Shown: positions 46,179 to 55,475 of the stretch, in pieces
Layout of the letters: each line of letters begins with the position of its first letter
Numbering within the stretch: position 1 is the stretch's first letter
Assembly: GCA_963847705.1 (NCBI GenBank)
Contig: CAWKBC010000008.1
Location: 71,593-135,592, forward strand
Origin: an uncultured Pseudomonadota bacterium
GTDB taxonomy: Bacteria; Myxococcota_A; Polyangia; Fen-1088
Length of the DNA: 64,000 nucleotides
Direction of reading: 5' to 3'
Notes under the pieces: generated by a model
Databases searched by the model: none
What the model was told of the DNA's origin: nothing
The model's input: only the letters and a program-made list of their open reading frames with translations
Made by a program: the position numbers and the translations under genes

Positions 46179-46886
46179 TCAGAAGTTCACGAGCTGCAAC
46201 GCCTCCGACCAGACGTAGTCATTCGCCGCCGCCTTGATGTGGCAGGTGTTGCAAACGGCAGGATTGCCGCCGTAAATGTTCGCCGATCCCGTCGGCGGAC
46301 CGTAACCCTGCCAGTTGATCACGACGCTGCCGTCGGCGTTGTTCGTCAGATCGTACCACTCCCAGTTGACGGCCCCGGTCGGGTTGAAGTCACCGCCGCG
46401 CTTGACCAGCGCCAAGACCTGCCGCGCGGTGGGATCGACCTCTTCGGTCTCTTTCACGATGATGGTGCCCAGCGGAAACGCCGTGCTCCCGTGGGGCGGC
46501 GATCTGTTCCAATACTCGGCCAGCGGCGCGGGGTGAACGCCGCCGTCGGTGACCGCCCCGTCGGGCGCCACCCCGCCGGCGTCGACCGACGGCAGGTTGG
46601 GCGACGGCACCGCCGGCGACGCCATGTGGGGCCAATTGTGGAAGCCGTTGAAGTCCGACTCGAAGGCCAGGAAGATCCCGCCGTCGGTCGCAGCCGCGGA
46701 AGGTGCGGCGGTGCAGCCGGCGGCAGCCCCACCGAGCGCGAGCGCGAGCGACGCGCGCCCGATCGCGGACAACTTGAACGAAGCCAACGTCCTGGAGTTT
46801 ACCGCAGAGTTCGACCTCCGCGGCCCCCTCGTAACCGATGCGTCAGAAACTGAAGCCGACAATCGTCCGGGCCCAGACTGCCCCAT
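46179..46886 (-). CDS. Cytochrome P460-family lipoprotein (paralog 2); start uncertain
   Basis: Lipobox AAAGC; FPLGTIIVKE, LVKRGG, WEWYDL, C-terminal CNTCH heme site, DYVW. Confidence 0.72.
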   Translation of the reverse strand: MGQSGPGRLSASVSDASVTRGPRRSNSAVNSRTLASFKLSAIGRASLALALGGAAAGCTAAPSAAATDGGIFLAFESDFNGFHNWPHMASPAVPSPNLPSVDAGGVAPDGAVTDGGVHPAPLAEYWNRSPPHGSTAFPLGTIIVKETEEVDPTARQVLALVKRGGDFNPTGAVNWEWYDLTNNADGSVVINWQGYGPPTGSANIYGGNPAVCNTCHIKAAANDYVWSEALQLVNF

Positions 46887-47658
46887 AGGCGTCGCTGGTC
46901 CCGTAGGCCGGGGTCGTGAGGCCATTGAGCCGGAAGTAGAAACCGTTCGACCACCAGATCCTGCCGAGCTGCAGGAGGACGGTGGGGCCGAGGTAGTGCT
47001 GGGGGACCAGGTTCCAGCTGCCCTGGTCGTTGAGCTCGCCGTGCATCCAGTACTCGATGCCCGGCTGCGCGGTGATCCACTTTTCGAGCACGACGCCGGC
47101 GGTCGGATTCAAGACCCACTCGCGCTGGCCGCTGAAGTAGTACTCCCGCTCCGCCCAGGCGTTGGCCGCGATCCGAAACGGTCCCACGCGCCGCTGGAGG
47201 ATGATCTTTCCTTCCAGCTCGATCTCGTGGACGTTCTCGACCACCTCGCCGTAGACGGCCAGGTCGATCGGCCAGCGTCCCGCATCTGCGAACCGGTAGC
47301 GCAACCGCTGCTTGACCCCCGTCCCCTCCATCGTGCTCGGCGTTGGAGCGAATCCCCCTGAGTCGGTGGGGACGAGCACGAGGTAGAGGCCGAGCTCCAG
47401 CCGATCGGTGAGCCCGTATTCGATCTCCGCCTGGAATTGCGGCACCAGATAAGGCGTTTTCGCGCCATTGACGGTCTCGAGGTGCAGCGGCGTCAGGTCG
47501 GTGTAGAGCTCCAGCTCGGCGTCACCCGCCGGCAGCGTCTCGTAGATGTACGTGAAGGGGAGCGGGGCTGGCGTGGCGCGCGCGGGACGGCCGAGCGCGC
47601 CGGACAGAGCGAGGGCGACGAGCGCCGGGAGCGCGGCGCGAAAGGGCGTGCGGATCAT
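46843..47658 (-). CDS. Probable outer-membrane beta-barrel protein (DUF6662-like, from memory)
   Basis: Signal peptide; YETLPAGDAELE, EIEYGLTDRLELGLY, ELEGKIILQ; C-terminal IVGFSF beta-signal. Confidence 0.7.
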   Translation of the reverse strand: MIRTPFRAALPALVALALSGALGRPARATPAPLPFTYIYETLPAGDAELELYTDLTPLHLETVNGAKTPYLVPQFQAEIEYGLTDRLELGLYLVLVPTDSGGFAPTPSTMEGTGVKQRLRYRFADAGRWPIDLAVYGEVVENVHEIELEGKIILQRRVGPFRIAANAWAEREYYFSGQREWVLNPTAGVVLEKWITAQPGIEYWMHGELNDQGSWNLVPQHYLGPTVLLQLGRIWWSNGFYFRLNGLTTPAYGTSDAYGAVWARTIVGFSF

Positions 47659-47677
47659 CGGGGTCCTTTTGCGCCTG

Positions 47678-48334
47678 TCACGGCGCGGATTCGAGGGCGG
47701 AGAGCTGCAAAGCCGCCGACCAGACAAAGTCATTGGGTGCGGCCTTGCCGTGGCAGTCGTTGCAGACGTTCGGGTTGCCGCCGTAGATGTCCATCGTCGG
47801 GTTCGTGGGGCCGTAGCCCCGCCAGTTTATCGACTCGACGTCATTGGCTTTGTTGACGAGCTCGAAGAACTCCCAGTTGAGGGCGCCGCTGGCGTTGAAG
47901 CCGCCGCCCCGCTTGACCATGGCAAAGACCTGTCGCGCAGTCGGATCGGCCTCGTTGGTCTCCTTGACGATGATCGAGCCGATCGGAAAGGTCGTGCTGC
48001 CCGGGGTGATCGGAGGCAACTGCCAGTATTCGGTCTCCGGCAGCGGATGAACGCCGCCGTCGCCCGCGCCTCCGTCGGGGCCGACCCCGCCCGCATCGAC
48101 GGGCGGCAAGCTTGGGGAAGGCATCGCCGCCGCCGACGGCCAGGAATGAAATCCGTTGAAGGTCGAGTCGAAGGCCACGAAGATCCCGCCGTCGTTTCCC
48201 GCCGTCGATGGCGCAACGCTACAGCCGGCAGCCGCGCCGAGCGCGAATGCCAGCGACGCGCCGAGCGCGAGCGATCTGCCAGGCGCCAGCGAGGCGCGAC
48301 GACCTACGGACAGCCAGGGATGACGGGATCTCAT
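47678..48334 (-). CDS. Cytochrome P460-family lipoprotein (paralog 1)
   Basis: Lipobox AAAGC; FPIGSIIVKE, AMVKRGG, WEFFEL, C-terminal CNDCH heme site, DFVW. Confidence 0.75.
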   Translation of the reverse strand: MRSRHPWLSVGRRASLAPGRSLALGASLAFALGAAAGCSVAPSTAGNDGGIFVAFDSTFNGFHSWPSAAAMPSPSLPPVDAGGVGPDGGAGDGGVHPLPETEYWQLPPITPGSTTFPIGSIIVKETNEADPTARQVFAMVKRGGGFNASGALNWEFFELVNKANDVESINWRGYGPTNPTMDIYGGNPNVCNDCHGKAAPNDFVWSAALQLSALESAP

Positions 48335-48341
48335 GTGTCGG

Positions 48342-49484
48342 TCACTCGGAGACGAACTGCGGGAACCCCAGCAGAATGGCCGCCTGGTTCATCTCGGCGA
48401 CGACCGAGCCGGGGACGTTCGGATCGACCGCCTGGTGCACCCCTTCGTAGAGCATCCCGAACGGCGTCGCCTGATCGGTGGTGGTCGGGTTGACGCTGCT
48501 CCAGGTGTCGGGGGGCTGGGGGATGGCGTCCCCGCTCACCGAATCGTAGAGCGCCTGAAGCTTGGCGAAGCCAGCCTCGATGGCAGCGTCGATCGCCTTT
48601 CCGTCCTGCGTTGCTCCGCCGTCGCCAACGCCGCCGTCACCAGCGGCGCCGTCGCCAGCGGCGCCGCCGTCGGGCGTGGGGGCCGGCTTGGACTGGATCC
48701 AGGGCTGGAACAGCGCGTAGACCCGCTCGGTGCCGACCAGGTTGTTGCGGATGTCGAGCATCGTCGTCTGGGAGTAGCGCGACTCCTCCTGATTGGTGGA
48801 GGCCTTGTCGACCTTCTCCTGCTGCTCGTTCATGAGGGAGACCAGCCCCTGGAAGGCGGCGCCGAGGTCATAGGTCTGGGCGCTCTCCCAGCCGGTCTGC
48901 AGCGTCTTCGCATCGGTGATCTGTTTTTGAACCAGCTTGGTCTTGAAGTCGCTGGCCTCCTGCGCGGTGCCAGGGAAGGCGGAGGCGACGTAGCCCGTGA
49001 GCGTCGACTCGTACGCGATCACCCGCGCCGGCGTGACGTCGGAGTAGAGGATGCGCTCGACGGCGTGCATCCCGGTGACGCCCACGTCGTCGAACAGATA
49101 TGAATCACCGTTCGGCAGCGCGGCCAGGAAGTCGTCGTAGCGTGAGTCGATGGTGGCGTCGATGTCCGGGAAGATCGGCGCGGTGGCCCCCTCGATGTGC
49201 TCGTAGGCGGCGCGGCAGCCGGTCCAGGCGGCCTTCATCGCGGTGAAGGCCGCGGCGTCCATGGTGGGATCCCAGCCGCGGTCGGCCGGCGTCGGTGCCG
49301 CCGCTTGCAACATCTGCGAGTAGGAGACCAGGTTCCCGAGGTCGGTGATGAACGAGGTGCGCATTCCCGAGACGACGGCCGCCTGGTATTGCACGTCGGT
49401 CATGGGCGACGAGGGCGACGATGAGCAGGCCGCGCCCAACAGACCGGCGCCGACCGGGACGAGAAGCAATCGAAGTGAACGCAT
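48342..49484 (-). CDS. Imelysin/EfeO-like (peptidase M75) iron-binding lipoprotein
   Basis: Lipobox LGAAC; RAAYEHIEG, IDSRYDD, TGMHAVERIL (GxHxxE), EESRYSQTT. Confidence 0.88.
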   Translation of the reverse strand: MRSLRLLLVPVGAGLLGAACSSSPSSPMTDVQYQAAVVSGMRTSFITDLGNLVSYSQMLQAAAPTPADRGWDPTMDAAAFTAMKAAWTGCRAAYEHIEGATAPIFPDIDATIDSRYDDFLAALPNGDSYLFDDVGVTGMHAVERILYSDVTPARVIAYESTLTGYVASAFPGTAQEASDFKTKLVQKQITDAKTLQTGWESAQTYDLGAAFQGLVSLMNEQQEKVDKASTNQEESRYSQTTMLDIRNNLVGTERVYALFQPWIQSKPAPTPDGGAAGDGAAGDGGVGDGGATQDGKAIDAAIEAGFAKLQALYDSVSGDAIPQPPDTWSSVNPTTTDQATPFGMLYEGVHQAVDPNVPGSVVAEMNQAAILLGFPQFVSE

Positions 49485-49519
49485 GAGAGTTTCCTTTTCG
49501 ACAAGCGAGGACAGCGGAC

Positions 49520-50800
49520 TTAGAGAGATGTGACGAAGGCGATCAGCGCGTTTTGCTGATCCGTCGAGAGGTTGGAGAAGAGCTGCACCGAGGTGTGCGC
49601 CTCCGAGCCGTTGCCGTCGTGGGCCATGATGGCGCCGGCGACGTCGGTCGCCCGTCCGTCGTGGATGAACTCGCGCGAGAACCGCAATCCGATGAGCGGC
49701 GCCGTCCTCCACGTGCGCGCTGTCGCCACCCCCTCGCCGTCGTCGAGGCTGTCCGACAGGCCGTCGCCCATGTCGTGCAGCAACAGGTCGGTGTAGATCG
49801 GCGCGTCCATGTCGGCCAGCGCGGCGATCGGGTAGGTGGGGCTGGTGTGCAGGGTCGGGACGTGGCAGGCGCTGCACTGCACCTGGTCGAACAGCGCCAC
49901 CGCAGTCGGATCGGGCGTGGCGCGCCAGGGGATGGCGATCGTCCGGAGGTAGTCGGCGCGCAGGTTGACGTCGTCGGCCGTGGCGTCGATGCCCGGCTTG
50001 TCGTCGTCGGTGAGGCCGTCGGGGTTGGGGAACTCGGTCGGGCGCAGCGGGCTGGTGATCCCCATGTCGTTCTGGAGCGCGTCGGCCACGAACTCGTCGA
50101 GCGTGCCGATGCGCGCCTTCAGCCCGAAGCGACCGATGACCGTGTCACCCGGCTGGTGGGCGTCGAAGGTCGGATCGGGGTTGGGCTGCGAGGCGAAGAC
50201 GTAGGTGTTGACGATCCCGTGGATGGCGTCGGTGCGCGCCGCCTGCAGGGCGGCCACCCGCTGGATCTCGCTGTCCTCGACCGCCTCCAGGTATCCGCGG
50301 CCCATGACCGAGGGGCCGACGCGGGTGGTGACCCGCACGTTCGACACCCCCGTGGGTGGCACGATCGGCGTCACCGCGGGGGCCACCACGAAGGGGTGGA
50401 CGGTCGGCCCCCAGGGCAGCGCCGACTGATCCGGCGAGGGCGTCAGACCGTCCGCCTCGACCACCGACATCTTCTGGGCGGCGCCAGGGCCGCGCAGGCC
50501 GTCCTCGGCGTCGTGGCAGGAACCGCAGGACTGGCGGGTATAGAGCGGACCGAGGCCGTCGGGATCGCGCAGGATGACCTCGAACAGCTGGTCTCCGTCG
50601 TTGAACTTGGCGACCCCGTCGGAGCCGATCCCCGCGATGGGGACGTCGAACAGGTTCTCCAGCCCCGACCCGTCGGGCGGAGGGGTCGTCCCCATGCCGC
50701 CCCCGCCCCCCCCACAGCCGAACGCCGCCGCGGCCAACAGGAGCCAGCTCAGCGGCATCCGGAAACGCAAGGGGGGCGTCAGGGGGCGCGTCGAAGTCAT
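49520..50800 (-). CDS. Di-heme oxidoreductase (DHOR/thiol-oxidoreductase-like) lipoprotein
   Basis: Lipobox AFGC; DGLGPLY...CGSCH, GRFGLKA, DMGITS, CSACHVP, YTDLLLHDMG, WRTAPLIG, HDGRA. Confidence 0.9.
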   Translation of the reverse strand: MTSTRPLTPPLRFRMPLSWLLLAAAAFGCGGGGGGMGTTPPPDGSGLENLFDVPIAGIGSDGVAKFNDGDQLFEVILRDPDGLGPLYTRQSCGSCHDAEDGLRGPGAAQKMSVVEADGLTPSPDQSALPWGPTVHPFVVAPAVTPIVPPTGVSNVRVTTRVGPSVMGRGYLEAVEDSEIQRVAALQAARTDAIHGIVNTYVFASQPNPDPTFDAHQPGDTVIGRFGLKARIGTLDEFVADALQNDMGITSPLRPTEFPNPDGLTDDDKPGIDATADDVNLRADYLRTIAIPWRATPDPTAVALFDQVQCSACHVPTLHTSPTYPIAALADMDAPIYTDLLLHDMGDGLSDSLDDGEGVATARTWRTAPLIGLRFSREFIHDGRATDVAGAIMAHDGNGSEAHTSVQLFSNLSTDQQNALIAFVTSL

Positions 50801-50812
50801 GACCGGAGGCCC

Positions 50813-51031
50813 TCAGCTGGCCAGGCGGAACGACATCGATTGCAGGACGGTCAGCGCGCAGCGCGCGGGCTCGTCTTGGTCGCGCAGGAGGCCGGCGATC
50901 GCCGGACGGCAGCCGCCGCAGCCGGTCCCGGCGCGGCAGGCGTCGCCCACCTCGTCGATCGAACGGGCACCCTCACGGATGGACTCGCGAATGGTTCGGT
51001 CACAAATTCGATGGCAGTGACAGACGAGCAC
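50813..51031 (-). CDS. bfd: Bacterioferritin-associated [2Fe-2S] ferredoxin
   Basis: MLVCHCHRI...AGTGCGGC; GGAGG ribosome site. Confidence 0.9.
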   Translation of the reverse strand: MLVCHCHRICDRTIRESIREGARSIDEVGDACRAGTGCGGCRPAIAGLLRDQDEPARCALTVLQSMSFRLAS

Positions 51032-51057
51032 AGATACCTCCCTGAAGAGTCCCTAAG

Positions 51058-51082
51058 GATATTGATAGTCATTATCAAAATC
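51058..51082. promoter_or_regulatory. Fur box (two overlapping sites)
   Basis: GATATTGATAGTCATTATC (51058-51076) matches 17/19 of GATAATGATAATCATTATC; a second site offset by 6 nt matches 14/19; AT-rich island between bfd and bfr. Confidence 0.9.
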
Positions 51083-51179
51083 AACTAGATTCGACGCCGG
51101 TTCGACAACCCCGCTTCGCGCCAGCAGAATCGGGCGCGCCAGGGACCGGACAGACCCGCCGCCCGCTCAAGGAGAAGAC

Positions 51180-51650
51180 ATGCAGGGAGACCAGGAAATC
51201 ATCACCGCGCTGAACGACATCCTCACCAGCGAGCTGACCGCCATCAATCAGTACTTCATCCACCACAAGATGCTGGAGAACTGGCACTACGCGCGGCTGT
51301 CCAAGAAGAAGCGCGAAGAATCGATCGAGGAGATGAAGCACGCCGACCGGATCATCGCGCGCATCCTCTTTCTGGACGGCGTCCCCAACCTGCAGCGTCT
51401 CGGGCCGGTGAAGGTGGGCGAGGAGCCGATCGAGATGCACAAGCTCGACCTCGAGCTCGAGCGTGAGGCGGTGGCCCGGCTCAACAAGGCGATCGCCCTC
51501 TGCCTGAGCAAGCAGGAGGCGGGGACCCGCGAGCTGCTGGAGGACTTGCTGAAGGAAGAAGAGGACTCGATCGACTGGCTGGAGGCCCAGCTCAAGCTGG
51601 TGAGCGACATCGGCCGCGAGCGGTATCTTTCCGAACAGCTGCGCGACTGA
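51180..51650 (+). CDS. bfr: Bacterioferritin
   Basis: ELTAINQYFIH, ESIEEMKHAD (ferroxidase ligands and heme Met), RILFLDGVPNLQ; AAGGAG ribosome site. Confidence 0.96.
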   Translation: MQGDQEIITALNDILTSELTAINQYFIHHKMLENWHYARLSKKKREESIEEMKHADRIIARILFLDGVPNLQRLGPVKVGEEPIEMHKLDLELEREAVARLNKAIALCLSKQEAGTRELLEDLLKEEEDSIDWLEAQLKLVSDIGRERYLSEQLRD

Positions 51651-51659
51651 CCGACGGCG

Positions 51660-51905
51660 CTACGGCGCGCCGGAGAAGGGCAGCATGGTCATGAGCATCA
51701 TCCCCAGCACGGTGCCGACCCCGAAGATCGCCAGGATGGTCACCGTGTGCCCGAGGCGCCAGAGCGCGCCGATGGCGGCCGCAACGCGGAGCCCGCGCTG
51801 GCGACAGACGATGGTGGTCACCGCCACCACGTGGTCGGCGTCGGTGGCGTGTCGCATCCCCAGGAAGAAACCCAACGCGAGGAGCGCCGGCGAGCCCAAG
51901 GTCAC
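51660..51905 (-). pseudogene. Internally deleted NiCoT/HoxN-type nickel/cobalt permease remnant (81 aa)
   Basis: Signature GMRHATDADHVVAV and LGHTVT fused directly to a late-TM-like segment IFGVGTVLGMMLMT; far too short for this family. Confidence 0.7.
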
Positions 51906-52576
51906 TCTTCCTCTGCGAGGGAGAACCGGACTGGCACGACCACCAGGCTCGAGACGGGGACGCCCCCGGCGCGCGCCGGCTCGAATGTCCAGCGGTGGAC
52001 AGCCTCGAGCGCCGCGCGATCGAGCAGCGGGTGGCCGCAGCTGCGATTGAGCGAGATCGTGGCCGGCGTTCCGTCCGCTTGGACGAGGACGTTCAAGAGA
52101 ACGATCCCTTCTTCCCGGCGCCGGAGGCTGGGGATCGGGTAATCGGGTCTGGGGTTGGTGTGGTAGCGGGGCCTGGCGGAGCTCACGGCGCCTCCGCTCT
52201 GCGCAGCAGGCGCCGACGCGCGAACGGTGGTGGCCGGCCCCGGTGACGGCGAGCTCGACGGCGCGGCCGCGGCGACCGTCGGCGCATCGGCGCCGGCTGA
52301 CGGATCTGCCAAGGCCGACGTGGGTGTGGGATTGTCGACCGAGGCGACCTCGCGGATGTGCCGGGGGACGTGCGGCTTCGGCCCTGCCGAGGTTGGCTTC
52401 GCCGGCGGCGCGCTGTCGGCAACCGGCTCCGGCTTCGGCGCCACCACCTCGAGGTCGACCTCGATCGCCGCAGCCGGCTCGGCTTTTGCGGGGGCATGCG
52501 ACAGGAGCGCGGCCGCGACGCCGAACAGCGCTCCGTGCAAGCCGAAGGCGACGAGGAGGCTGAGCGTCAGTCGCAT
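51902..52576 (-). CDS. tonB: TonB energy transducer
   Basis: N-terminal TM with His (AFGLHGALF), Pro-rich linker, PDYPIPSLRRREEGIVLL...SCGHPLLDRAALEAVHRWTFEPA...VPVRFSL. Confidence 0.9.
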   Translation of the reverse strand: MRLTLSLLVAFGLHGALFGVAAALLSHAPAKAEPAAAIEVDLEVVAPKPEPVADSAPPAKPTSAGPKPHVPRHIREVASVDNPTPTSALADPSAGADAPTVAAAAPSSSPSPGPATTVRASAPAAQSGGAVSSARPRYHTNPRPDYPIPSLRRREEGIVLLNVLVQADGTPATISLNRSCGHPLLDRAALEAVHRWTFEPARAGGVPVSSLVVVPVRFSLAEEE

Positions 52577-52592
52577 CCGCCGCGCCGCCCCA

Positions 52593-54758
52593 TCAGAAGT
52601 GGGCCGTGAAGCTGCCGCGCACCTGGAACGGCTCGACGGGATGAATGTGAACACCGTTCATGCCCGCCGCGGGCTCGTAGTATTTCGATCCCGGGCCCCC
52701 CGTGAGAGCATCCGGCAAGCGCGACGTGTAGAGGTAGGCGATGTCATCGGCCTGCGAGTCGAAGAGGTTCAGAATCCCGAGGCTGACTTCGTACTTGCTG
52801 AACCGATACCCAACCAGCGCGTTCACGATGGTCGATTCGGGCTGGCGTTGGCTGTCGTCCTCGATGATCGGCTGGGAGCTGAAGTAACGCAGCCGCACGC
52901 CGCCGAACAGCCCGTTCGGCGCCTCGACGATCGCCGCCGCCGAGATGACGACCGGGATCGAGTTGGCGATGTAGAAACCGGTGGTGCCGGTGACGGTCTC
53001 CTGCGGGTCGGTGTAACGGGCGTGGGCAAAGGAGAAGTCGGCGGTCAGCGTCAGCCACCGCGTCGGCTTGTAGAAGTTGGCCCACTCGATGCCGTACCGG
53101 CGAGAGGGGCCGTTGGCCTCGGTGTCGCCAGAGTCACCGTCGAAGGTCAGCTCGGAGTTCGACTGCAGGAACCAGAACGAGAGCGTGGTCACCAGTCCCG
53201 GAACGATCGACGTCCGCGCCCCGACCTCAGCCCCCTTGGTCCGGACCAGGAGCGGGACTTGCCCCTGCGGCTGCAGCGTCACGGGATCGACCGTGATCGT
53301 CACGCCGCGGGCGTCGTTGCTGTGAAAGCCCGAGCCGGCGTCGAGGTAGATCTCGGTCTTCTTCCAGGGCCCGAAGACGAGCGTCGCCTTGGGGCTGAGG
53401 ATACCGGCGGTCGAATTTCCCGAGTTGGCGGCGGTGTTGCTGTTGACGTCGATCGCGAAGACGTCGCCGCGCAGACCAAGCTGACTCCTGAACCAACGCG
53501 TCCACTGGACCTGATTGCTGGCGTAGAGGCCGGTGTTGAACTCCTCGATGTGGTCGTAGATCTCCACCTTCACGACCTCGCGCTCGACGGTGTTGTCGAG
53601 GCCCGAGTCTGGAATGTAGTCGTTTCGGATCTGAATGCCGACGGTGTTCTCGACCTTCTTCCCCCCCCAAAGACGCTCCCAGACCCGCTTCAGCTCGCCG
53701 CCGGTGACGAAGCGACGATCGATCTGCTCGAACTGATCGGTGTTGGTGGGCGGTGCCGAGATCCCGTCGGCGAGCGCGTAGGTGAAGTCGGACCAGAGAT
53801 TCAGGCGGTAATAGAAGCCGTAGAGCAGCAGCTTGGTGACCGCATCGCCGTCGTTCCGGAGCCAATCGAAGGTGAGCGCCGCCCGGCCGGTCTTCCCACC
53901 GTCGCTCTGATCAATCGCGCCAAAGCGGTCGATGAGCCCCTCGTCGATGGCCCGCTGGGCGACCTGATCGGTGGAGTGCCACTGCGGAGCCCAGTAGCCG
54001 CTCGCCGTCAGGGTGTAGTCGTCGCGCCCGTGATCCCAGTGGTAGCGCAGGAGCGCGTTGTAGCGGTTGGAGTTCTCCGGCAGATCCCAGGGGCCGTCGT
54101 AGTGGTTGTACTCCAACGCGTAGAGGAGCGTGCCCGGGCCGAGCGTCGGGCTCTCCGCCAGCAGCGCCCGCGCATAGCCGAACTGACCGATCTGCAGGTT
54201 GGCGATCCCCTCGGGGAGTGTGTTCACCTGACGAATGTTGGCCGCGCCCGAGCCCGAAAAGTCGCCGACCTCCGGGTAAAACGGCCCCTTCTTGAAGACG
54301 ATCTCGTCGACCAGCTCGGGGATCAGGAAGTTGAGATCGGAGTACCCTTGGCCATGCGCGTGGCTGGGCAAGTTCACCGGCACGCCGTCGACGGAGAACG
54401 CGAAGTCCGTGCCGTGATCGAGGTTGAACCCGCGCAAGAAGTACTGGTTCGCCTTTCCGTCCCCGGAGTGCTGGGTCACAACCATGCCAGGGACGGTTTC
54501 GAGCAGCTCGCCGCGGCGAAGGATCGGCAGGTCCGCCAGATCGACCTCGCCCACCGCCCCCTGCGAGGCGCTGAGGGCGTTCCCCAGGAGATCTTCGGCG
54601 CGGCCATGGACGACCACCTCCGGCATCTGCGTCGGCGTGCCTGACGCGGCCGAGACGGGCGCCACCGGTTCCGCTGCAGCGACCCCCTCCGCCCGCACCG
54701 ACGCTTGCGTCGCCGCCAACAGCAACGTCACGAGGACAAAACGGTAGCACGAATCCAT
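52593..54758 (-). CDS. TonB-dependent receptor, probably for nickel/cobalt
   Basis: TonB box EVVVHG; plug LETVPGMVVTQHSGDGKANQYFLRGFNLDHGTDF, HAHGQGYSDLN; C-terminal HIHPVEPFQVRGSFTAHF; downstream of nikR. Confidence 0.9.
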   Translation of the reverse strand: MDSCYRFVLVTLLLAATQASVRAEGVAAAEPVAPVSAASGTPTQMPEVVVHGRAEDLLGNALSASQGAVGEVDLADLPILRRGELLETVPGMVVTQHSGDGKANQYFLRGFNLDHGTDFAFSVDGVPVNLPSHAHGQGYSDLNFLIPELVDEIVFKKGPFYPEVGDFSGSGAANIRQVNTLPEGIANLQIGQFGYARALLAESPTLGPGTLLYALEYNHYDGPWDLPENSNRYNALLRYHWDHGRDDYTLTASGYWAPQWHSTDQVAQRAIDEGLIDRFGAIDQSDGGKTGRAALTFDWLRNDGDAVTKLLLYGFYYRLNLWSDFTYALADGISAPPTNTDQFEQIDRRFVTGGELKRVWERLWGGKKVENTVGIQIRNDYIPDSGLDNTVEREVVKVEIYDHIEEFNTGLYASNQVQWTRWFRSQLGLRGDVFAIDVNSNTAANSGNSTAGILSPKATLVFGPWKKTEIYLDAGSGFHSNDARGVTITVDPVTLQPQGQVPLLVRTKGAEVGARTSIVPGLVTTLSFWFLQSNSELTFDGDSGDTEANGPSRRYGIEWANFYKPTRWLTLTADFSFAHARYTDPQETVTGTTGFYIANSIPVVISAAAIVEAPNGLFGGVRLRYFSSQPIIEDDSQRQPESTIVNALVGYRFSKYEVSLGILNLFDSQADDIAYLYTSRLPDALTGGPGSKYYEPAAGMNGVHIHPVEPFQVRGSFTAHF

Positions 54759-54776
54759 GGAATGGTAGCGGGCGTC

Positions 54777-54804
54777 ATAACACGACCTTTAAAATTCGTG
54801 CCAC
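54777..54804. promoter_or_regulatory. Candidate NikR operator (CACGA-N10-TCGTG with AT-rich spacer)
   Basis: ATAACACGA-CCTTTAAAAT-TCGTGCCAC about 20-45 nt upstream of the receptor start; widely spaced half-sites suit a NikR tetramer. Confidence 0.45.
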
Positions 54805-54840
54805 CCCCTTTCGTCGCAACAACCGTGCGACAACCGCGTG

Positions 54841-55386
54841 CTATTTGCGACGGGTGCGGCGGGATCGACGCGGCGCTGGCGTGGTGGCCGGATGCGGATG
54901 CGCGTGATCGTGGTCGTGGTCGTGATCGTGGTCGTGGTCGTGCAGATGCGCCTGCCCGTCGTCGTGCGTGTGCCCGGCAACCTCGATCGATGAAACGATC
55001 TCGATCCCGCCGTGCTTGACCCCGCGGATGGCCAGGATCTGGTCGGCCAGCGCCGCCAGCCGATCGGAGCGGCCGCGCAGCACGATCACCTCCAGACAGA
55101 GATCGTGCGACAAATGGACGTGCATCGCCGCCCGCACGTCGTCGCCGAGGTCGTGCTGCAGCGCGGTCAGCTTCTCGCTCAGATCGCGGGTGTGGTGGTC
55201 GTAGACCAGCGTCAGCGCCCCGACCGCGTCCACGCCGTCGGGGACCTTGGCCCGCCCCACCTCGGCGCGGCCGAGGTCGCGCAGCAGCTCTGACCGGGTG
55301 CAGCCGCGCTTGCGGGCCAGGGCATCGAGCTCGCGCAAGAGCGACCCCTCCACCGCGACGCCGAACCGGACCAGGGGGTCTTTCAT
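54841..55386 (-). CDS. nikR: Nickel-responsive regulator NikR with a C-terminal His/Asp tail
   Basis: Ribbon-helix-helix LVRFGVAV...RSELLRDL; YDHH, QHD, HVHLSHDLCLEV nickel ligands; GVKHG. Confidence 0.93.
   Translation of the reverse strand: MKDPLVRFGVAVEGSLLRELDALARKRGCTRSELLRDLGRAEVGRAKVPDGVDAVGALTLVYDHHTRDLSEKLTALQHDLGDDVRAAMHVHLSHDLCLEVIVLRGRSDRLAALADQILAIRGVKHGGIEIVSSIEVAGHTHDDGQAHLHDHDHDHDHDHDHAHPHPATTPAPRRSRRTRRK
54904..54942 (-). repeat. Hexamer tandem repeat (CACGAC/CACGAT) encoding (HD)n
   Basis: gtgatcgtggtcgtggtcgtgatcgtggtcgtggtcgtg on the plus strand. Confidence 0.8.
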
Positions 55387-55475
55387 CGCCGGCAACGGTA
55401 CCGCAAGAACTGTTTCAACGCGCGCGGCGGAAGCGCTATACATTCCCGCCAACAGGAACCCGCAGGAGTCACCGC

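Follow-up and report, generated by a model that had tools for sequence, protein, structure and literature searches.

A DHOR-imelysin-cytochrome-barrel gene set behind a Fur-like box in Myxococcota as a candidate iron-uptake system

Imelysin lipoproteins encoded beside a di-heme cytochrome of the DHOR family are found in the iron-regulated IrpAB system of Synechococcus elongatus and the iron-regulated, Fur-controlled PA4370-PA4373 operon of Pseudomonas aeruginosa, and a porin-cytochrome-permease model has been put forward for the cyanobacterial set (PMC9080828, PMC3143127). The route by which iron gets to the periplasmic imelysin and DHOR proteins, and its fate there, have been open since the operons were described (PMC3143127). 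For EfeM, binding of both Fe(II) and Fe(III) has been reported, and the motifs of sites III and IV have been assigned to metal binding (PMC9174327). Here we describe a locus in a 64,000-nt stretch (the window) from an uncultured Pseudomonadota bacterium (Myxococcota_A, Polyangia, Fen-1088 in GTDB; assembly GCA_963847705.1, contig CAWKBC010000008.1, positions 71,593 to 135,592, forward strand), where six minus-strand genes behind a Fur-like box join a DHOR protein and an imelysin to a monoheme lipoprotein related to cytochromes P460 and to a predicted outer-membrane beta-barrel. The conserved unit is DHOR-imelysin-P460-like cytochrome-barrel, and its role in iron acquisition is well supported by context. 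We consider iron uptake, which is common to the oxidation route favored here and to two of the alternatives weighed below (reduction at the pore, and a cytochrome acting as a guard), very likely, while the more specific proposal, that the set takes up iron independently of TonB, and with no need of siderophore receptors, by an oxidation route, is put forward tentatively, at somewhat less than an even chance.

The locus had been singled out in an original prediction, made by a model from the sequence of the window without database searches, which described a 17/19 Fur-like box ahead of a tightly packed run of six genes. The box and all six genes are indeed there (Table 1), and the gaps from bfd to the barrel gene measure 12, 35, 7 and 19 nt in order; the gap that follows, between barrel and cytochrome B, is probably 55 nt, the likeliest start of B being the TTG at 46787. 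Terminator-like sites between 45800 and 51800 numbered 0, vs. 2.3 in shuffled sequence, and a promoter-like site within the run (47681-47654) was discounted as it overlaps the start codon of the barrel gene. The bacterioferritin gene, which the original prediction does not mention, is divergent from the operon, with the same Fur-like box between them. Scored against a 19-position E. coli Fur consensus, the box at 51058-51076 matches at 17/19 on the plus strand and 16/19 on the minus strand, and a 15/19 site overlaps it at 51064; nothing else in the 6.1-Mb genome scores above 15/19, which makes this box its best match. The genome (69% G+C, 85% complete) has cytochrome c assembly genes and is assigned to Polyangia (Myxococcota) by the labels of homologues. 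A matrix derived from relatives (26 sites upstream of DHOR-led loci, each matching the consensus at 13/19 or better) also ranks this box top, with 31.6 bits. By our by-eye reading, the box overlies the spacer and the -10 of a candidate bfd promoter which is itself weak (8/12 matches, under the cut-off of the promoter scan). With this 19-bp palindromic box over the promoter and one FUR-family gene in the genome, on contig C3, we surmise that Fur binds here and represses the operon when iron is replete.

Conservation of the gene set was followed in three samples, in which kin are not independent and the counts overstate the number of events. Cytochrome A has a match in 13 of 60 relatives, and all eight genomes in which DHOR, imelysin, cytochrome and barrel are contiguous (G003, G006, G007, G012, G015, G018, G020 and G035; G, L and C numbers are our own handles for genomes, loci and contigs) belong to those 13. 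When GTDB was scanned with the cytochrome alignment (best 80 of 231 confirmed relatives, neighborhoods of up to 8 kb), a barrel gene was nearby in 50, DHOR in 48 and imelysin in 48 of the 80 loci, with all four genes together in 31; the barrel followed directly behind the cytochrome in 46, and bfd was an accessory (10/80). By their record titles, these loci all come from metagenome-assembled genomes and cover Polyangiaceae, Kofleriaceae, Myxococcaceae and Archangiaceae. Starting instead from the close barrel family, a scan of metagenomes (best 78 loci of 331 relatives, 6 of the 78 being too short) showed the cytochrome directly upstream of the barrel in 52 of 78; among the 28 loci with at least 3.3 kb upstream, the cytochrome was present in 24, imelysin in 20 and cytochrome, imelysin and DHOR together in 17. 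The linkage is kept despite shuffled gene order (L182, L184, L212, L223, L229, L230), and the order cytochrome-barrel-imelysin-DHOR is also found. The original prediction had made its case depend in part on this linkage of cytochrome and barrel to imelysin and DHOR, which is conserved elsewhere. Its picture of two cytochromes flanking a barrel holds for the locus itself but not as a design, which we ruled out since a second cytochrome behind the barrel is rare (2 of the 80 cytochrome-seeded and 1 of the 78 barrel-seeded other loci); cytochrome B, 65% identical to A over 172 residues, is a local duplicate outside the conserved core. A search of plasmids found no match to the barrel.

Regulation by Fur is likewise suggested beyond this genome, and the cytochrome and barrel genes have Fur-like boxes of their own where they lead an operon. 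Boxes of at least 12 bits precede 8/8 bfd-led, 3/4 imelysin-led, 1/1 barrel-led and 30/36 DHOR-led loci (the last by leave-one-out, still partly circular), and also 13/27 cytochrome-first loci, vs. 15/565 other genes as control; four loci with too short an upstream region were left out. For the barrel, we sampled 40 of the 46 homologue places and 7 further loci, leaving out our own gene and two P460-adjacent places, and found a box of at least 15 bits upstream of 36 of the 46 homologues with sufficient upstream DNA, vs. 13 of 264 neighboring genes. Since boxes lead such loci, the barrel family, and often the cytochrome too, has a box independently of imelysin and DHOR. FUR-family genes were also seen directly upstream of barrel homologues at L107:2972-3448, L110:5445-5915 and L138:3011-3574.

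Table 1. Features of the locus, in positions of the window; lipoprotein and signal-peptide assignments were read from the sequence by eye
Feature	Position	Strand	Basis or detail
bfd, bacterioferritin-associated ferredoxin, 72 aa	50813..51031	-	PF04324, 59.5 bits
DHOR-family di-heme c lipoprotein (IrpB/PA4371-like), 426 aa	49520..50800	-	PF06537, 137 bits
Imelysin-only lipoprotein, EfeM/EfeO type, 380 aa	48342..49484	-	PF09375, 71 bits (cut-off 23.5)
Monoheme lipoprotein A (cytochrome A), predicted P460/c'-beta fold, 218 aa	47678..48334	-	fold model and alignments
Barrel, predicted 12-stranded outer-membrane beta-barrel, DUF6662-like, exported, 271 aa	46843..47658	-	fold model
Monoheme lipoprotein B (cytochrome B), 202 aa from probable start TTG 46787	46179..46787	-	65% identity to A
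Bacterioferritin (bfr)	51180..51650	+	TIGR00754, 188.6 bits (cut-off 125.55)
Pair of overlapping Fur-like boxes	51058-51076 (17/19), 51064-51082 (15/19)		shared upstream region of bfd and bfr, which are divergent
Candidate sigma-70 promoter of the operon	51056..51084	-	-35 at 51084, 17-nt spacer, -10 at 51061

The imelysin of the operon has its closest PDB matches in EfeO (7wgu) and an M75 protein (7q1g), although it scores below the cut-off of the NCBIfam EfeO model (50.7 bits vs. 270). Its GxHxxE motif at residue 138 is kept in 84/84 homologues, and the other metal-site motifs, EExRY and the acidic site IV among them, are kept in 79, 82 and 83 of 84 as aligned to EfeO, so that the site III and IV motifs of EfeM, both predicted metal sites, are retained. 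Next to it, as in operons of the IrpAB/PA4370 type, lies the DHOR gene, whose product carries CxxCH at residues 92 and 309, with two such motifs in 70/70 close homologues; a PDB search with DHOR returned only one weak, uninformative match. The operon contains no inner-membrane iron permease, in keeping with the original prediction. However, the genome has a single FTR1 match that is unlinked to the operon; it lies on contig C30, carries both RExxE motifs and is closely preceded by a weak box (13.8 bits). A search for FeoB_C gave no match in the genome, which is 85% complete.

From these parts we infer the following route. Iron starvation would lift Fur repression of the operon, and Fe(II) would enter through a predicted acid-lined, 12-stranded pore at which the P460-fold cytochrome may dock; this monoheme lipoprotein and the di-heme DHOR would oxidize the Fe(II), its electrons ending up by way of DHOR on peroxide or oxygen, and the imelysin would hold the resulting Fe(III) and hand it over to the FTR1 permease encoded elsewhere. 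Bfd is known to mobilize iron stored in bacterioferritin and would do so here. The same parts may also run in the reverse direction, with a low-potential cytochrome reducing Fe(III) chelates at the pore for assimilation, and bis-His hemes, such as the one we suspect in the cytochrome, usually have a low potential. In addition, a reductive model has been proposed for IrpAB within the SomB1-IrpAB-Ftr1 set of Synechococcus (PMC9080828), and a relative of the same fold, McCP-beta, has a potential of -205 mV (PMC11928373). We prefer oxidation for two reasons: 1) the set includes no inner-membrane electron donor, as no quinol oxidase, cytochrome b or flavoprotein of the inner membrane appeared among the annotated neighbor families present in at least 3 of the 80 loci plus the window (a survey with a crude gene caller and part of the families annotated); 2) the imelysin is of the EfeM type, which is used with FTR1-family permeases. 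On balance, the reductive version appears unlikely to us.

The original prediction assigned the monoheme lipoproteins to the cytochromes P460, known for hydroxylamine and NO (nitric oxide) chemistry, and this assignment stands for the fold and the cross-link lysine but not for the catalysis. Cytochrome A has one CxxCH, at residue 191. Its model (predicted local distance difference test, pLDDT, 83.8) retrieved only P460 or c'-beta structures in the top 17 rows of a VIA search (Z 6.9-9.0), with the best match being 7ead (Z 9.0, root-mean-square deviation 3.4, 118 aligned residues) and the next unrelated fold at Z 3.6; a Foldseek search with the same model gave nothing at E <= 0.001, and a single-sequence PDB search gave no match. 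At the level of profiles, the family matches McP460 with E 2.7e-06, and in the hidden Markov model search that the prediction had suggested, A and B reached 22 and 21.2 bits on PF16694 (Cytochrome_P460), under its curated cut-off of 27 bits, while 57 of 75 family members match it at E <= 0.01 (best 1.3e-09).

Three features are named for the P460 pocket, namely the cross-link position, the catalytic carboxylate and the distal cap (PMC11928373). At the first of these, Lys124 of cytochrome A aligns with Lys78 of McP460 and Phe61 of TtCP-beta, which are the cross-link positions in Table 2 of that review (PMC11928373). The second is occupied by Phe137, with Phe in 70/71 close homologues, and none of the 128 rows scored (of 141) has Asp or Glu there; the corresponding Asp102 of McP460, as counted in the alignment, lies four residues before the Lys of a shared MVK motif. 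At the cap stands His96, invariant in 71/71 close homologues. HMMER aligns it with Arg50 of McP460, and counting from a conserved Tyr puts it at Phe29 of TtCP-beta, so both registers, by alignment rather than coordinates, place it at the cap position; the structurally characterized P460/c'-beta members covered by the review all have Phe or Arg there (PMC11928373). His and Lys are both present in 120/141 rows. His96 may be the sixth heme ligand, in which case the protein would carry single electrons instead of binding ligands as a P460. With the catalytic carboxylate absent and a conserved His at the cap, hydroxylamine oxidation by this family is unlikely. Ordinary hydroxylamine-oxidizing cytochromes P460 placed by chance beside an iron operon would account for the fold and for the Lys at the cross-link position, but we regard this explanation as highly improbable, given a catalytic position without Asp or Glu in 128/128 rows, the conserved linkage and boxes, and the presence of a separate canonical McP460-like P460 in the same genome (G000 C21:182252-182662; 103 bits, Lys and Asp positions kept), for which no Fur-like box was found within 1 kb upstream.

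Among the cytochromes, one clade of 12 members, largely from Kofleriaceae (L052, L053, L061, L070, L080, L086, L087, L091, L092, L093, L097, L117), has lost both His and Lys, with Glu replacing the cross-link Lys; in 10/12, the heme motif is followed by an additional pair of Cys residues. These members keep the linkage to barrel or imelysin, with a box in 11/12, and the cross-link is therefore not needed for the shared role. As they form a single clade (Shimodaira-Hasegawa, SH, support 98 in a quick tree), we rejected co-variation of His and Lys as independent evidence.

The barrel model (pLDDT 95.5) has 12 strands when DSSP elements are counted and resembles the KdgM-NanC/FapF/COG4313 group, with FapF at Z 19.7, KdgM at 18.9, a COG4313 channel at 18.9 and a fourth match at 16.8. 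In the Pfam search likewise suggested beforehand, the barrel of the window had no match, DUF6662 (PF20367) included, and a PDB search with the barrel profile returned nothing. The link to DUF6662 comes from relatives: 8 of 75 close homologues match PF20367 weakly, the distant L106 and L109 pass its cut-off, and 71-90% of the members of Atlas neighbors at 0.98 carry it. The 75 close homologues have 14 Asp/Glu and 4 Lys/Arg in common without exception, mostly at alternating strand positions that are predicted from the model to face the lumen; in the 93 rows of the three main groups, Glu 21, 23, 51, 53, 111 and 122 (mature numbering) never vary, while Glu 143 and 175 are kept in nearly all. The protein also has a conserved N-terminal segment and no CxxCH, cytochrome and barrel being separate genes, though no search aimed at longer, fused forms was made. 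In the barrel tree (FastTree, midpoint root, no clade test), the P460-linked barrels make up one branch (56 rows, SH 98) beside those linked to a small cytochrome. At two metagenome loci (L175, L176), the barrel is split in two pieces behind a strong box, with no cytochrome detected.

This small cytochrome is a monoheme lipoprotein of about 105 residues, unrelated to P460, which directly follows 32 of 47 barrels outside the P460 operons (9 of the 32 seeded the search profile). A one-heme partner thus recurs with the barrel. The idea that the P460-like cytochrome strictly replaces the small one is weakened by the co-occurrence of both in 9 of the 28 long P460-type loci. The Fur-like box, DUF6662-like barrel and small lipoprotein (CxxCH, usually a later Met) make up a two-gene unit across Myxococcota (L133-L170, L105-L110, e.g. 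L140:4002-5147 and L147:4027-5234) that is possibly a finding of its own. In G155 and G218 (L133:3999-10701 and L134), box, barrel and small cytochrome precede a canonical imelysin-DHOR-imelysin operon, an arrangement that is a second link of the barrel family to imelysins. The own genome has, with no barrel adjoining, a 115-residue monoheme lipoprotein related to the small cytochromes, with His where others have Met, behind its second-best Fur-like box (L102:6825-7172, G000 C30 at about 440.8 kb; 28.5 bits).

A further possibility is that iron uptake is the task of barrel, imelysin and DHOR alone and that the P460-fold protein acts as a co-regulated guard, binding or destroying periplasmic NO or peroxide, and never handles iron or docks at the pore. 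NO buffering and peroxidase-like activity have been proposed for non-catalytic members of the superfamily (PMC11928373), the distal His could serve as an acid-base residue, and the cytochrome is often found without partners, just as most genomes with imelysin are without the cytochrome. However, the tight adjacency of cytochrome and barrel (46/80, 52/78) outlasts reordering, another monoheme lipoprotein recurs beside the same barrel family (32/47), and the genome has its separate canonical P460 without a box; we therefore deem the guard function unlikely.

It could also be that the operon, albeit iron-regulated, is not an importer, with DHOR acting as a MauG/MbnH-like maturase (e.g. for a heme-Lys cross-link) or with the pore passing another cation or a small chelate. 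No solved relative of DHOR was found, the P460 cross-link is peroxide-dependent (PMC11928373), and EfeM binds Cu and Zn as well (PMC9174327). Moreover, the same cytochrome and barrel occur beside a propeller-di-heme protein with weak similarity to MbnH/MauG, and a nickel-type cluster adjoins the operon in the window. These points are countered by bfd/bfr and fur as neighbors, by the fully kept metal sites of the imelysin and by the clade with Glu in place of Lys, several members of which retain DHOR, leaving such a non-importing role improbable in our view. The nickel-type cluster (51660-55452, minus strand) comprises genes for NikR, a TonB-dependent receptor, TonB and a NicO-like protein, the latter of only 81 residues vs. 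226 in L021 and possibly truncated. The propeller-di-heme protein belongs to a second box-led module, together with a protein of about 800 residues without a Pfam or NCBIfam match and often a DUF4397 protein, and this module is frequently beside the same cytochrome and barrel (L103:6565-11099, on G000 C14 at about 305.6-310.1 kb; L026, L027, L030, L032, L033, L042, L057, L059, L066, L089); of its two copies in the own genome, one is preceded by a box (25.5 bits) and the other is not.

The oxidation route has to be held against a number of observations that speak against it: 1) the gene set is often incomplete, since all four genes come together in only 31 of the 80 cytochrome loci and 14/80 have no partner; 2) the cytochrome family is patchy, being matched in 20 of 251 evenly drawn genomes of the phylum (14 at E <1e-26, own included), and as imelysin occurs in 101 of these 251 genomes (a barrel homologue in 44), the cytochrome is dispensable for imelysin systems; 3) boxes are absent from 14/27 cytochrome-first loci, and at least 5 of the 13 present belong to divergent promoters that another module also uses; 4) His ligation is not universal, given that the His-less clade keeps the linkage and mostly the box; 5) the small cytochrome is also encoded in the 9/28 long loci mentioned above; 6) the lumen of the barrel model has conserved Arg/Lys besides its acidic residues, making cation selectivity a supposition; 7) FTR1 is near-core in the genus (22/25), and its presence therefore says little; 8) in the hands of Xu et al., two other imelysins bound neither heme nor ferric iron specifically (PMC3143127); 9) the potential of McCP-beta suits reduction better. 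The boldest reading would be a kind of split Cyc2, in which the first P460-fold cytochrome outside nitrogen chemistry, as a His-capped (bis-His), Lys-cross-linked one-electron carrier, docks under a 12-stranded, Glu-lined iron porin. We find this reading doubtful; if true, it would represent a widespread, Fur-controlled unit for assimilating iron that has recruited two unrelated cytochrome folds, and it would explain the passage of iron through the outer membrane where imelysin and DHOR work together.

With respect to significance, the locus names two missing parts for imelysin-DHOR systems, a small outer-membrane channel family and a monoheme partner, and it ties a barrel family without known function to Fur-like boxes in 36/46 homologues across the phylum. 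For heme chemistry, it brings to light a naturally occurring P460 subfamily that has a His cap and lacks the catalytic base, along with a sister clade lacking His and Lys that offers a ready comparison for the role of the cross-link. A "cytochrome P460" label in soil metagenomes need not imply hydroxylamine oxidation or N2O production. We found no publication on imelysin together with cytochrome P460, none on DUF6662 and none on PF06537 (most subscription journals lie outside the search), and the 2025 review of the superfamily has no word starting with "Myxococc" and no "iron uptake" (PMC11928373).

Among known systems, the locus shares with IrpAB-SomB1-Ftr1 and PA4370-PA4373 an imelysin lipoprotein beside DHOR and a permease outside the operon, and the general idea of a redox-coupled iron conduit, which the original prediction suggested may be undescribed, has a proposed precedent in SomB1-IrpAB-Ftr1 (PMC9080828). 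The interpretation given in that prediction is supported in part. Unlike these operons, the locus encodes its own pore, a small DUF6662-like barrel with 12 predicted strands, adds a P460-fold monoheme lipoprotein, and encodes an EfeM-like imelysin with no second imelysin of the IPPA type. Like EfeUOB/M, it combines an M75-only lipoprotein carrying site III and IV motifs with a heme redox partner and an FTR1-family permease in the genome, but it has no linked EfeU/FTR1 and is not a member. Its heme partner is a c-type DHOR, whereas that of EfeUOB is EfeB, a DyP-type protein, and we know of no outer-membrane channel or extra cytochrome in EfeUOB. DHOR-type and EfeB heme partners have been equated (PMC3143127). 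With NsP460, McP460, TtCP-beta and NeCP-beta of the P460/c'-beta superfamily, cytochrome A shares the fold, the C-terminal CxxCH and a Lys at the cross-link position, and with inactive NsP460 it shares the lack of a catalytic carboxylate; unlike them, it is a lipoprotein with a His cap, a Fur-like box and iron-uptake neighbors. The small barrels FapF, COG4313 (Pput2725) and KdgM-NanC resemble the barrel in fold only, at 8-9% identity and with different cargo. In concept, one c-heme with an outer-membrane barrel bearing acidic residues recalls Cyc2, a fused monoheme cytochrome-porin with acidic iron sites that oxidizes Fe(II) (PMC13741234). Compared by description rather than by sequence, however, Cyc2 is a single 16-stranded fusion that serves energy metabolism, while the present locus has separate genes, 12 predicted strands and another cytochrome fold, and is predicted to be iron-repressed. 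We thus view the locus as a variant of the IrpAB/EfeUOB kind, one for which we found no published counterpart, that brings two unstudied protein families into this group.

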